From a bacterium (GTDB lineage: Bacteria > UBA8248), in NCBI GenBank assembly GCA_965213685.1, contig CBDBZY010000041.1:416001-480000 (forward strand): a DNA stretch of 64,000 bases, given 5' to 3'. Shown one piece after another: positions 19,596 to 27,689 of the stretch (position 1 is its first letter; every line of letters starts with the position of its first letter). The position numbers and the translations under genes are program-made. A model generated the notes under the pieces. The model was not told the DNA's origin. It made no database searches and saw nothing but the letters and a program-made list of their open reading frames with translations.

Positions 19596-19873
19596 CAGTG
19601 CTCTCAACCTCTCAATAACAATAGGAGGGAGATCAAACTTTTAAATGAGTGAGATTAGGAACAAAATGAGTGAGATAACCAACATTAATAGGGTTTGGAG
19701 ATAATCTATTGATGTAATTGTTTTTTGCTACTGTTAGCTCTATAGTACGTGGTCACGTGGACGTTGGAAGCAAAATTAGTTATATTATTATTATTATTAT
19801 TATTATTATTATTATACACACACCACTAAAGGTGAAAACGTAGAACAGAAAAGAATAGAAAGGAAAGACAAAG

Positions 19874-22786
19874 TTAAGCACATGATATAATGTATATAAT
19901 ATCATCGAACGGAGAAAATCGACCAAAAGCAATTCTGTAACGTCGAATGACTTCAGCACACAGCATATCCTCAGAAGAATACATTTTTATGTGTCGATGA
20001 CCAGAAATAAAGTTATAACCAGCGAAAGAATATGCACACTGAGATGCTTCTTTGAAGACGTACTTAACAAGAGGTGAGAGAGATGTTACAGCACGAGAAA
20101 GCATAGAATGAAACCTCATATACAACATATTAGACACTGACTGAATGTTACTAACACAGTGTACAATTCTTGTGTGAGAGTGTGGTGGTAGGTTCCATAT
20201 TCTCCTAAACATTTTGTTCAATGAACATTCAATGATACGCAAATTCTTGCAAGACAAATACCATAGTGTGCTACCATACATAGACAAACAAAATTGCTTG
20301 ACAAGAAAATTCTTTACGGAGAGATCTGCAAATGGAAATACACACTGAACAAAGTTAGCTTTCCGAGTCATATCTTTCGTTGCCCTTATAATATCAGATG
20401 TGTCATCCAAATTGTAAGACAGCACATGCCCGAGATGAGTGATTGTGTCCATGAAGTCCAGAGCAATACCACCAAAGTTAATGCAATCTTTACATGAGGA
20501 TGAAGAGGACAAACCAAATCTGATCAATTGAGTCTTTTCTGCATTGAACTTGAGGCCATGAGATTGTGCGAACTCCTCACAAGTTGTTAGCATAATTCGT
20601 AAAGCAGATGGACACGGAGCTAGCAGGGCTATGTCATCTGCATAACACACTGCACCAACAAAGTGAGCCCCCCAATAACATCCAACACCAATTCGAGACA
20701 GCTTCTGCAATAATCCATCCAAATACACAGCAAACAACACAGGAGACAACACACTACCTTGACGAACACCATTAGAAACAGAAAACGAATGAGACACACA
20801 AGAATTCCAGCGAACACACATTTGTTGACTACTATACCAACTTAGAAGAAAATGGAGAATAGGAGTTGGGAGACCACGAGAATGAAGAATATCAAATAGA
20901 ATGCCATGATCCACCAAATCAAATGCTTTGCTTGCATCTAAAAAACAGCCATAAACCTTAGAACCTTTACGTATATACCTAGAAACAATATTCTTTATGA
21001 GTCCTGTGCAAAGAGTTGTTGAATGACCTTTCTTGAAGCCAAATTGCAAAGCACTACTTGTAAAGTAGGATTCATATCTGGAGAGTATTATTCTTTCCAG
21101 GACTTTACTCAAGAGAGATGCAATTGCAATTGCTCTGTAGTTTTTACTGCTAGAATGATCTTTGTTATTTTTTGGTATGGGGACCAACGTACAATCTCGA
21201 ATACACTTGGGCATGTATCCATGACGAAGAACAGCTGTGAAAAAAGCAGACAGAGGACCAGCAATGGGGAGTGCAGAGAACCTTAAATGCTCAGCAGATA
21301 GCTGTGCAGAATCCACCTTGTTAGGCTTGATTAGATGGATTGCATTCAGTACATCATCAATGGAGACATGAACAGTTGAAAGATGATCAAGAGATAAAGA
21401 GATATTTGAAGCTTGAAGCAAAGTGTGCCGTAAAGAGGAACTGTGTGTATTGAGAAGGCCCTGCAACTTAGAAGCCCACAAGTTTGCAATGTCATTACCA
21501 TCAGAAACACCATCAACAACTGGAGCACATCTGGAATTTCTGGGTTTTGTCAATTTATTGACTAGTGACCAAAAGTCTTGAGGGTTTTTTCGACAGTAAG
21601 ACTTAGCTAACTTATCCCGTAACAAATACATCTGTTGCCTTTTGACTTTACGGGCTGCAAATTTATACCTCTTTTTTGCCTTCTTCTTTATATCAAAGAG
21701 AACGCCCGATTTAGGGCATCCAGCTTCCAACCAAACATGATACCAGAAATTGGTTTCATGCCTCAACTTCCTCGGCCCATCATTCCAGCCCACCAGCCCT
21801 CTGTGCTTTGACTTCATGTGAGAAGGAATGCAGGATGCTGCACATTTCAAAAGGCATGTGACAAGCATATCAGCAAAGCGATCAATACAACTAAGATGTG
21901 ACAAGCAATTAGGCGAACAACAAGAAGCAACATCAGGAGGAAACGGTGGAAGTGACTGAGCAACTAGCTTAGAGTAATTATCAAGATCTTCTTTAGATGC
22001 TTTGTCCCAGTCCAGACTAGGAGAGGAAGAAAACGAATGAGAAGTGGTATCTATCAAAGAGCAATCGACGTTAAGAGTAAATGCAATTGGATGATGGTCA
22101 GAAAGATTAGAACCCAGAAGCACACTTGTAACATGTGACACTATATTTGAGTTATGAATAGAACACAGAACATGATCAACCCAAGATGTTACAAGCCCAT
22201 CATCTCGCTCGTAAGTAAATTGAATAGCGTCTGGAAAGGAAAGATCTCGTGCACAGAGATCCCACTCATCCATAAAATCCAAAAGCAACTGAGTTAAACT
22301 GCCACCCCGAGAAAAATCCACATTAAAATCACCAACAAGTAAATTCACATCACACTTATGAAACTCCAAGAAGCCCTCCAACTCACCAATTGTACTTAGG
22401 TACTCATCAAAGCAAAATGAATGCGACTGAGCAGGCATATACACACAAACCACAAGGACAGAAACACCACAGGAATCATGCAATTTGACAGCACAAAAAC
22501 GATTAGAATTACATAAAAGTGGTGTAATGGAAGAAAACAAAGATCGCCGATACAAAATGGCACAGCCCCCATATGGCCGTCCACACAACAACACACTACC
22601 ATCAATACCACTAACCGAGACACTGTGAAAATCAGGGTGAAACTCATTCAGCAGATACAGCTGATCAGGTAGCAACCAATGTTCCTGAATGAAACATATA
22701 TCAAGAGAACCAATCAAGTCCCAAAGAGTTTGTTTACCACTATTCCAACCTCTACAATTATAAGTAAGGCACTGTAGCGGGGCCAT
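19874..22786 (-). CDS. LINE ORF2: apurinic endonuclease plus reverse transcriptase (970 aa)
   Basis: TYNCRG, QEHWL, GDFN, DHV, SDH; FLDASKAFD, GVRQGSVLSP, YADD, HLG. Confidence 0.96.
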   Translation of the reverse strand: MAPLQCLTYNCRGWNSGKQTLWDLIGSLDICFIQEHWLLPDQLYLLNEFHPDFHSVSVSGIDGSVLLCGRPYGGCAILYRRSLFSSITPLLCNSNRFCAVKLHDSCGVSVLVVCVYMPAQSHSFCFDEYLSTIGELEGFLEFHKCDVNLLVGDFNVDFSRGGSLTQLLLDFMDEWDLCARDLSFPDAIQFTYERDDGLVTSWVDHVLCSIHNSNIVSHVTSVLLGSNLSDHHPIAFTLNVDCSLIDTTSHSFSSSPSLDWDKASKEDLDNYSKLVAQSLPPFPPDVASCCSPNCLSHLSCIDRFADMLVTCLLKCAASCIPSHMKSKHRGLVGWNDGPRKLRHETNFWYHVWLEAGCPKSGVLFDIKKKAKKRYKFAARKVKRQQMYLLRDKLAKSYCRKNPQDFWSLVNKLTKPRNSRCAPVVDGVSDGNDIANLWASKLQGLLNTHSSSLRHTLLQASNISLSLDHLSTVHVSIDDVLNAIHLIKPNKVDSAQLSAEHLRFSALPIAGPLSAFFTAVLRHGYMPKCIRDCTLVPIPKNNKDHSSSKNYRAIAIASLLSKVLERIILSRYESYFTSSALQFGFKKGHSTTLCTGLIKNIVSRYIRKGSKVYGCFLDASKAFDLVDHGILFDILHSRGLPTPILHFLLSWYSSQQMCVRWNSCVSHSFSVSNGVRQGSVLSPVLFAVYLDGLLQKLSRIGVGCYWGAHFVGAVCYADDIALLAPCPSALRIMLTTCEEFAQSHGLKFNAEKTQLIRFGLSSSSSCKDCINFGGIALDFMDTITHLGHVLSYNLDDTSDIIRATKDMTRKANFVQCVFPFADLSVKNFLVKQFCLSMYGSTLWYLSCKNLRIIECSLNKMFRRIWNLPPHSHTRIVHCVSNIQSVSNMLYMRFHSMLSRAVTSLSPLVKYVFKEASQCAYSFAGYNFISGHRHIKMYSSEDMLCAEVIRRYRIAFGRFSPFDDIIYIISCA

Positions 22787-25841: not shown

Positions 25842-26768
25842 TCAGAGTGTTTCTTCCTTTTGTTCACAAGCGAAATTGATGAATACCTGTGTGAGACATC
25901 GATGAACCATGCACCCTCAAATTAATGTCAAGCAGTCAATTGCAACAATCATATGTACTTGCTCCAGGGTGGTCTGGCTGACACTATAGTCAATGATGCC
26001 CAGTCTCTCCTTGTCCAGCTGATGGAATACAGAGGCCCAGGTCAGACCTGCACTATAGGCAACTGGTAGGTCACTGACCCCTGAAGTGTAGACACCACAT
26101 AGGTATGTGCTATAATATGAAACACAACCAATCTACACACACACACACACACACACACACACACACACACACACACACACACACACACACACCTGATGTA
26201 TTTCTAGCAGAACAGCTCCAGAGAAGGGCTCTTTTATAATGATATGCAGTTGAGTGGGGCCACTGCCTCGTAAGGGATGACACTCAACATTTATGCTTTT
26301 GTGAAAAATTATGATGAGAGAGTTCACTAAAATGGCACACATAATTATTTCCAATGAGAGCAACATAACCTAGTCTACCTTTGGAGTGGCTGGGGTGTGG
26401 GAGCTGCAGTATAGGGTTCTAGAACTTCTGGGATACTGTAGCTGCTGTGTGTAGTAGTTTGTGAGAATTATGCCTCCTGATTCTGGCAAGCTGTGTTACC
26501 ATGGGGAGCAGAAACAAGGAGGCCCACTTTGGCTTGAAAATTGAAGCCTGAACCAAATCTAGAGTAGATACATAGAGCATGTAGGGGATACAGTTTTTAT
26601 GTGCATGTACCTACACAACCCATAAGGGGATAACATTATATGCACATGTATATGAAATTTCCCTCTTACTTGCTCTTGAGGTGTTGGATGCTGCCAAGGC
26701 ATTTGAATTGTCCATTGACCATTATAGCCAGCCTGGTACACAGAGCCTCACATTATTGATCCTCCATG
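25842..26768 (-). pseudogene. ABCA-subfamily transporter, last five exons
   Basis: Exons 26768-26670 ([33 protein letters not shown]), 26558-26379 (FGSGFNFQAKVG...), about 26270-26193 (FSGAVLLEIHQ), 26080-25959 (GSVTYQLP/...[15 protein letters not shown], frameshifted) and 25886-25842 (VFINFACEQKEETL*). Confidence 0.9.
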
Positions 26769-27689
26769 CTATGAAATAAACCAACACACAAACAAACACT
26801 GGGTCAATAATCCATGACGAGATGGGCCATGTCATCAACCACAATTATTATGGAGTTGCCATGTCCCCAGCCACAGAGCAGTGCTATATTATATATCCTT
26901 TCCCAGGCTTTCCCCCACATGCCAGCACAACAGGGTTTGCACTTTAGTGCTCTTCATTATAATTTTGTGTGTATGCATATTTCGACAGTCATTGAAATCA
27001 AACCTGGGCATTGTGAAAGTCACCTGCACAGTTGACATTACCAGAAAGCAACTCACTGATGTAGTGCTCTCAACCTCTCAATAACAATAGGTGGGAGATC
27101 AAACTTTTAAATGAGGGAGATTAGGAACAAAATGAGTGAGATAACCAACACTAATAGGGTTTGGAGATAATCTATTGATGTAGTTGTTTTTTTTGCTACT
27201 GTGAGCTCTATAGTACGTGGTCACGTGGACGTTGGAAGCAAAATTAGATATGTGCGCACGTATGATCATATATCATGAGCATAAGACCCGAGGGGCGCGC
27301 GCGAGGCGCACGTGGTTGAACCTAGCTAGCTCAAATGCGCGCTAGTTAGCTACGTCCGTGCGTACACGCGTGTGGTACCGGTACGCCCCTTTCACATCCC
27401 CTATATACGGCGAGTATACAGTCGGCAGCGCAACTGTTGACGGGTCGAAGACCCTAACCTTGCGGAGCCACGCCTTCTCGCGCATATAAGTACCATCCTA
27501 CGTGAGATTTGGGTGTGCTTTGCGGGTGACATACTAAATGCGTGAGCCTCGCGCGCAATGCGTGAGAGTTGAGAGGTCTGGGATTCCCAGGAAGACCTGT
27601 GATCCTTAGCCAATCGTCCCCAGATAATGCCCACCATACTTGGATTGGAATCACGAGTTATGAGCAGATTGTCACTGCCAGCTTCTGAC

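Follow-up and report, generated by a model that had tools for sequence, protein, structure and literature searches.

Between positions 19,590 and 27,586 of the window, by which we mean the whole 64,000-nucleotide stretch that was analyzed (positions 416,001 to 480,000 of contig CBDBZY010000041.1 in assembly GCA_965213685.1, here G000:C41:416001-480000), two copies of a MITE, a miniature transposable element with inverted repeats, enclose the 3′ end of an ABCA gene copy, and the whole block is bordered by a short direct repeat. Taken as a whole, this is a real, cleanly bounded MITE-cargo-MITE insertion with dead ABCA exons in DNA that we treat as that of a sponge, and an event of a known kind. 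The order of its parts, established by repeat search and by inspection of the sequence, is left flank, GGATTC, left part of copy A, a 4.8-kb insert, right part of copy A, a 2,132-bp cargo, copy B, GGATTC, and right flank. Positions given without a contig refer to the window.

19590-19595, no strand: GGATTC, the target duplication in its left copy; counting base 19596 as flank extends it to 7 bp (GGATTCC)
19596-19783, plus strand: left part of MITE A, including the left terminus CAGTGCTCTCAACC; 181/188 positions identical to B
24585-24929, plus strand: right part of MITE A, ending in ..GAGAGTTGAGAGGTCTG; 309/333 positions identical to B
24930-27061, minus strand: cargo of 2,132 bp, in which the 3′ part of a copied ABCA gene, with five exons, four introns, and a stop codon at ~25843, is followed by ~0.9 kb of downstream sequence
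27062-27580, plus strand: MITE B, intact, 519 bp
27581-27586, no strand: right copy of the target duplication, GGATTC, read in the sequence and in contigs from public sequencing runs

Although the assembly is kept as a prokaryote genome (7.97 Mb), its contigs fall into two G+C classes, one of ~65% and one of 43–53%, the latter including C41, C64, C18, C16, C51, and C7 and amounting to ~4.9 Mb. We treated the window as sponge host DNA binned with a bacterial symbiont because of this G+C class, because introns, long interspersed nuclear elements (LINEs), and MITEs are present on C41, and because the public runs sharing C41 sequence are labelled as sponge metagenome or carry coded organism names. 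The assembly is thus mixed, with ~4.9 of its 7.97 Mb in contigs of 43–53% G+C that contain introns, LINEs, and hAT elements and that represent sponge host DNA, and yet its marker-gene contamination figure is only 3.68%; as this window illustrates, host DNA makes up more than half of this bin, which is labelled as prokaryotic. The host DNA open to search was accordingly limited to these ~4.9 Mb, so that the absence of an element from it is weak evidence. Comparisons with contigs from the public runs X9, X10, X1, and X3 hold among the joints and pieces listed for these runs, and we gave no weight to depth ratios or coverage holes as indications of absence or copy number.

The initial annotation of this DNA, made from the sequence alone, had described two copies of the same ~520-bp element on either side of 2.1 kb, and this description holds: A and B are 94% identical (490/521, with four indels of 1–10 nt), B measures 519 bp, and the cargo 2,132 bp. 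Both copies lie in direct orientation with all four termini complete. The left terminus reads CAGTGCTCTCAACCTCTCA in A and TAGTG... in B, and the right terminus, when reverse-complemented, reads CAGACCTCTCAAC-TCTCA. Elements of the hAT superfamily share the terminal consensus (C/T)A(G/A)NG, and the left ends of A (CAGTG) and B (TAGTG) conform to it, the reverse-complemented right end reading CAGAC; the termini further share the 8-mer CTCTCAAC. Within the cargo itself, the best candidate for additional MITE-like sequence had an E-value of 0.3 and was rejected.

The GGATTC repeat borders the outer MITE ends only, and an in-register match of 6/6 has a chance probability of ~2.6e-4. Copy A on its own is flanked by GGATTC and CAGTGA, and copy B by CTGATG and GGATTC; a pair of elements in direct orientation with intact outer termini thus carries a target-site duplication (TSD) around the whole unit only. 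The 6-bp outer duplication reported initially therefore stands, with the amendments that its length, read from one insertion, may be 6 or 7 bp, and that the duplicated bases occur once in uninterrupted relatives of the target (see below). An 8-bp register for the outer duplication was also considered and rejected, with only 2/8 positions matching.

The target of this insertion is a degenerate host repeat related to a family of SWIM-type proteins, and its two halves flank the composite unit as follows.

19218-19589, plus strand: left flank, whose segment 19218-19564 is one arm of a SWIM-family pseudogene repeat duplicated in inverted orientation; the flank reads ..QWKSLEAYSYFRSGHA*DV at its end (P0013, P0033, and P0041 aligned by tblastn)
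27587-28648, plus strand: right flank, with the SWIM-family remnant continued at 27587-27691 (..VILSQSSPDNAHHTWIGITSYEQIVTA) and the inverted arm at 27692-28648

A phmmer search with a better-preserved copy (L006:1034-1366) retrieved 514 relatives, among which the window remnant corresponds to the N-terminal region of the family. When seven longer relatives were compared to the window by tblastn, the left flank aligned up to ..WKSLEAYSYFRSGH(V), for instance to residue 161 of P0033 and residue 133 of P0041, while the right flank aligned from SQSSPDNAHHTWIGI.. onward (residues 182-206 of P0033, E-value 2.7e-5), in order and on the same strand. In the family proteins, the alignment runs on the left up to ..SGHV and resumes on the right from SQSSPD..HH.W, leaving a gap of ~13 codons in the window versus ~20 in the relatives. 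Since the two halves lie in different frames and include a stop codon, we consider the flanking open reading frame (ORF) a decayed remnant. The initial suggestion that the flanks rejoin into one SWIM-type ORF can be retained as far as colinearity with the family and the joined run contigs are concerned, but not as an open frame, and the SWIM label itself derives from a sub-threshold Pfam match (17.8 bits against a cut-off of 19.6) in one relative only, P0123, among six proteins scanned. The CxCx(n)CxH zinc finger of SWIM domains was not found in the window remnant, which stops at ..IVTA, before the CxC motif.

Contigs from the public runs show the same target without the insertion. One contig each in X9 and X10 joins position 19589 to 27581, with seven letters fitting both sides and the intervening sequence listed as not known. 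A second joint, from 19596 to 27605, was listed in X10, X1, and X3, with between-letters CAGGAAGA that are identical to window positions 27588-27595; this joint is uninterrupted sequence with a 9-nt deletion variant. Across the four runs, joined-form contigs carry GGATTC(C) once. These contigs have depths of 562 and 184, compared with 137 and 56 in the case of the only cargo contig listed, and because of these depths we read the joined-form contigs as probably other copies of the host repeat rather than an empty allele of this locus. The expectation that the rejoined flanks would be contiguous in relatives of the host element is thereby confirmed, the run contigs being uninterrupted at the exact point and the family proteins colinear across it. 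Together, the outer TSD and a target that holds the duplicated bases once in uninterrupted relatives are what a composite insertion predicts.

Next, we evaluated the cargo, which is homologous to the end of the second nucleotide-binding domain (NBD2) and the C-terminal regulatory (R1) region of ABCA transporters, with the exons in the expected order. The five exons were delimited by tblastn and splice sites:

~26770-26665, minus strand: ABCA exon 1 of the fragment
~26558-26516, minus strand: ABCA exon 2 of the fragment
~26261-26190, minus strand: ABCA exon 3 of the fragment
~26119-25956, minus strand: ABCA exon 4 of the fragment
~25885-25843, minus strand: ABCA exon 5 of the fragment

A word search with the frame at 25917-26132 (minus strand) retrieved P0002, a 422-residue spliced ABCA C-terminus, and P0001, which is a read-through ORF and stems from a related locus on an ENA contig of 949 kb. 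Aligned to the window by tblastn, P0002 gave two high-scoring segment pairs (HSPs; E-values 1e-13 and 3e-13) that span HSME.. to VFINFA.EQ, and the Pfam model R1_ABCA1 matched with an E-value of 0.0011 and 19.4 bits, below its cut-off of 27. The introns follow the GT..AG rule, with AG/GT exon boundaries legible in the sequence. This copy is a dead pseudogene fragment, not a gene: a 6-nt insertion in its first exon introduces an in-frame TAA, while the fourth exon carries two extra nucleotides at ~26055 that shift the frame and a 6-nt deletion at 26013. Run contigs that do not have the two extra bases (X9, X10, X1, and X3) or that retain the missing six (X9, X10, and X1) show that these sequencing runs also contain, elsewhere, an ABCA version with its frame intact. 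The intron-bearing ABCA C-terminal exons recognized initially are therefore confirmed, on the minus strand and as a degenerate copy.

Against the ~4.9 Mb of host DNA, the cargo returned 20 HSPs, comprising the locus itself, 17 matches to a 120-bp repeat, and two short matches; no second copy of the cargo and no other ABCA gene were found in these host contigs. The proposed parent ABCA locus with both MITEs beside it was thus not recovered by this search. Likewise, the donor order element-cargo-element had no match in the genome, metagenome, or viral contig collections, and a search for related loci with P0001 and P0006 found none.

The inner boundaries of the cargo, by comparison, qualify the initial statement that only the outer ends share a duplication: GGATTC is indeed restricted to the outer ends, but the inner flanks also resemble each other.

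24930-24939, no strand: inner flank after A, CAGTGATGTA, nearly repeated at 27054-27063 and resembling hAT termini elsewhere in the genome
27054-27063, no strand: inner flank before and into B, CACTGATGTA, with a 7/8 match to 24930-24937

In precisely the register that an 8-bp TSD would occupy, the inner flanks match at 7/8 positions; with the first two bases of B included, the match is 9/10. The chance probabilities are ~4e-4 and ~3e-5, respectively, both being post hoc figures. One of the two strings, CAGTGATG, is over-represented 3.5× in this DNA (519 occurrences against 149 expected), and CAGTG(A/T)TG-like strings adjoin two other hAT-like elements. The inner match may reflect a target preference, hAT ends abutting each other, or a real 8-bp TSD.

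What, then, produced this arrangement? We tentatively favor a single macrotransposon insertion, in which a ~3.2-kb unit entered the target through its outer MITE termini, at a probability that we place close to, though short of, an even chance. At the donor, the 3′ end of an ABCA gene would have lain between two direct ~520-bp hAT-like MITEs, with 2.1 kb captured between them, and a transposase would have used the left terminus of A together with the right terminus of B. The target would have been the loop of the inverted-duplicated SWIM-family pseudogene repeat, where 6 (or 7) bp, GGATTC(C), would have been duplicated; the captured DNA, now dead, would comprise an ABCA gene's final five exons together with its 3′ flank, and a full-length LINE would later have inserted into copy A. 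We infer joint movement of both MITEs with the cargo, a hAT transposase acting in trans as the enzyme, and a donor locus arranged in the same way, as MITE-cargo-MITE. As an explanation, macrotransposition appears the most economical, with the simplest chemistry and a precedent in maize. The initial claim of a composite transposition that duplicated host exons is hence partly upheld: its anatomy, its outer TSD, and its uninterrupted target stand, whereas a donor, a solo-copy TSD, and a link to hAT6 were not found, and that five ABCA exons were moved in this way is, judging from sequence, a claim with partial support.

Several observations weigh against macrotransposition. The inner near-repeat is not predicted by it in its simple form, and no donor locus was recovered (above). 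No solo MITE copy with readable flanks was found; two other copies are known as proteins only, with one flank each, and the one related element within reach (G000:C41:485083-485477) shows no 6-bp TSD, its flanks agreeing at 5/8 positions when read in an 8-bp register but at just 1/6 in a 6-bp one. An autonomous element with these terminal inverted repeats (TIRs; sought termini CAGTGCTCTCAAC) was likewise not found, although only ~4.9 Mb of host DNA was searchable. The MITE is also rare, with no copies in these 4.9 Mb apart from the pair, which makes it unlikely that two copies inserted independently at a donor, 2.1 kb from each other. Finally, the same outer TSD would also be expected if a solo MITE had inserted and then recombined.

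Two alternatives were weighed, and the inner near-repeat fits a single donor MITE with an 8-bp TSD under either of them, whether by a composite insertion through re-replication or by ectopic recombination. In the former, a single donor MITE, in an ABCA intron, would have undergone alternative transposition (sister-chromatid or reversed-ends) into unreplicated DNA, followed by re-replication of the element with its flanks on either side and the joining of the two aborted ends, such that A and B both derive from one donor MITE, the cargo is a fusion in which the right flank of the donor is joined to the left one, and CAGTGATG / CACTGATG represent the 8-bp TSD of the donor. This would explain the 7/8 (9/10) inner repeat in its exact TSD register, would need only one donor copy, and has a mechanism and product structure described for maize Ac in the relevant part of PMC4270019; one mismatch in eight is also in line with the 6% divergence between A and B. 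An internal junction could be marked either by the end, at 25403, of a 469-bp contig of X9/X10 that otherwise shows no differences, or by position 25471, where the contig of organism A (X1) loses similarity, although both contig ends may equally be heterozygous sites. Set against this, one transposase would have had to produce two lengths, 6–7 bp outside and 8–10 bp inside, the outer flanks agree at only 2/8 positions in an 8-bp register, and the inner match may not be a TSD at all, given the 3.5× excess of CAGTGATG and the similar strings beside two other hAT-like elements. On balance, we regard such a single-donor origin as unlikely, though not negligible.

The other alternative involves no composite transposition: a solo MITE would have generated the GGATTC TSD, and a later break would have been repaired from an ectopic, MITE-bearing ABCA locus, by gene conversion that copied MITE-cargo-MITE or by circle integration via MITE homology, so that the cargo and the second MITE were gained at that point. 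An identical outer signature is expected in that case, ~520 bp of homology would have been available, mosaic copies would allow for the 6% difference between A and B, and single-donor variants also account for the inner repeat, even though these variants share the same mismatch in TSD length. Such repair would nevertheless call for an ectopic event of a rare sort, with no more than 94% identity between the repeats involved, and no solo-MITE allele was found among the joints listed, so that we consider it improbable, to about the same degree as re-replication. Much less probable still is that the structure is a coincidence, with GGATTC occurring by chance beside two independent insertions, or an artefact of misassembly across the MITE copies. 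Bacterial and host DNA are indeed mixed in the bin to which the contig belongs, and no listed contig spans a MITE junction, but a 6/6 match by chance is rare (above), the flanks are contiguous in other copies of the target, and A and B differ at 31/521 aligned positions plus indels, making a collapse or duplication in assembly unlikely. The remaining probability belongs to something that we did not consider. Once a host genome is available, the inner near-repeat may separate macrotransposition from re-replication or recombination.

We next considered the affiliation of the MITE, for which the initial annotation had cited hAT6 elements and their 6-bp TSDs. Groups of hAT elements with 5-, 6-, and 7-bp TSDs are described in the section of PMC12730594 on such groups, but a hAT6 identity is not borne out here, as no transposase could be linked to the MITE and no element with matching termini was found; on the evidence of its termini, the MITE is hAT-like rather than hAT6. 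A search of the assembly for further copies detected, besides the pair, no more than a 35-bp match. Among the terminus matches listed across the 7.97-Mb assembly (7 and 11 for the two ends), only copies A and B lay within one mismatch of the left 20-mer and only A and B matched the right 20-mer exactly, with no further site within one mismatch of either end, G000:C18:446026 two mismatches away from the right 20-mer, and all others at four. The MITE was found in 0 of 41 other genomes of the bacterial family, and exact 24-mers of either end had no match in the metagenome, genome, or viral contig collections. The MITE-borne ORF retrieved three proteins (P0006-P0008), representing other copies elsewhere with different right flanks and one flank each. 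Host contigs do contain remnants of hAT transposases (PF05699), with 12 matches, of which 10 were above the cut-off.

Other hAT-like elements occur near the window and elsewhere in the host contigs. The related element mentioned above is a diverged 395-bp relative of the MITE (G000:C41:485083-485477, or L007:1084-1478) located 5 kb past the end of the window, whose TIRs are CAGCCATGCCAAC / CAGAAATGCCAAC. CTG|CAG junctions adjoin this relative at either end, and the sequence on its right, CAGTGTTG, is similar to the flank that follows MITE A. A 2.9-kb hAT element with termini CAGTGTTGT.. is present twice, at G000:C41:190853-193756 and C64:76862-79765, in copies that are 99.93% identical, which suggests recent activity, although a TSD could not be read for this pair. 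Ahead of its C41 copy stands CATCACTG, which is CAGTGATG in reverse complement, and beside this copy lies a 34-bp perfect palindrome of two CAGTGATGTACATGT ends (G000:C41:190798).

Copy A is split by a LINE with the following features.

19784-24584, minus strand: full-length LINE of 4.8 kb splitting MITE A, with an (AAT)n tail at 19784-19815
19874-22819, minus strand: LINE ORF2, a 981-codon open frame with endonuclease and reverse transcriptase
22786-24378, minus strand: LINE ORF1, a 530-codon open frame with a SAND domain

Pfam matches were obtained to RVT_1 (6e-33), Exo_endo_phos (3e-11), and SAND (2e-14); we know of no SAND domain in other LINE ORF1 proteins. The LINE appears intact, with near-identical copies on C7 and C64, and is 99.85% identical over 3,355 bp to G000:C7:31568-34922, which makes it far younger than the 6% divergence separating A from B.

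Around and within the composite unit, further repeats were noted. The inverted arms of the host repeat (19218-19564 and 27692-28648) are 79% identical by repeat search when a 585-bp insert in the right arm is set aside, and they enclose a loop of ~136 bp within which the entire composite insertion lies. This 585-bp insert (28013-28596) is a high-copy repeat that splits the right arm, is present in dozens of copies at 95–97% identity across the host contigs (accounting for most of 77 HSPs), and exceeds everything else in depth by a wide margin in the public runs; its probable identity is that of a recently expanded short interspersed nuclear element (SINE) or MITE. Just left of the flank, at 18115-18466, lie two tandem copies of a ~188-bp unit that are 93–94% identical. 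The 120-bp repeat of the cargo is listed here:

26813-26932, no strand: 120-bp dispersed repeat in the first-intron region of the cargo, responsible for 17/20 cargo HSPs, all on G000:C16 at 81–87% identity

Its 17 copies on that contig fall within G000:C16:191000-371000 at irregular spacing. We also considered the cargo as a hAT element of its own, with ends CAGTGATGTAC.. / ..GCAACTCACTG that match at 8/11 positions as TIRs, and rejected this candidate, as no TSD flanks the cargo; CAGTGATGTAC recurs as a terminus-like string, for instance in the 34-bp palindrome described above. For the segment 24930-25403 as a separate small element (ends matching at 8/11; run contig 24935-25403), no other copy was found in the 4.9 Mb, bar a 33-bp match to the 585-bp repeat. 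The ORF across the junction of A and the cargo had no homologue in a protein search.

Plants offer well-documented cases of cut-and-paste DNA transposons moving host exons, whereas the documentation in animals is sparse. This copy shows no sign of function, and its value is that of a mechanistic example: if macrotransposition is correct, pairs of non-autonomous elements are able to shuffle pieces of genes in early-branching animals such as sponges, whereas re-replication from a single donor would place the alternative-transposition pathway of maize Ac in such an animal, acting on MITEs. In bacterial composite transposons, two copies of a small insertion sequence (IS) likewise mobilize the DNA between them (IS-cargo-IS), but they belong to different transposase families, and the IS copies encode their own enzyme while the MITEs here encode none. 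Foldback-bounded elements of Drosophila and Pack-MULEs or other transduplicates are eukaryotic DNA transposons known to carry host gene fragments, but with long foldback ends or with the fragment inside one element, instead of between two complete copies as here. The hAT6 and hAT7 groups, as presented in the passages of PMC12730594 that cite Kapitonov and Jurka 2007, resemble this locus in their (C/T)AG... termini and in having a TSD of less than 8 bp, a length read here from one insertion; membership in these groups is set by the transposase. The Composite Insertions of maize, in the portion of PMC4270019 devoted to them, also have outward-facing termini that are bordered by a TSD and enclose duplicated donor-flank DNA, and would explain the inner near-repeat; their source, however, is an Ac/fAc pair whose ends are reversed, and all their TSDs are 8 bp long, whereas the two repeat lengths disagree here. 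Macrotransposition by paired hAT elements is documented in maize in the section of PMC9910405 that cites Huang and Dooner 2008. While the Ac/Ds macrotransposons described there have 8-bp TSDs, as opposed to an event that we infer from one sponge locus with ~520-bp MITEs and a TSD of 6–7 bp, they resemble the present structure in that two direct hAT-type elements move the enclosed DNA through their outermost termini and leave one TSD.

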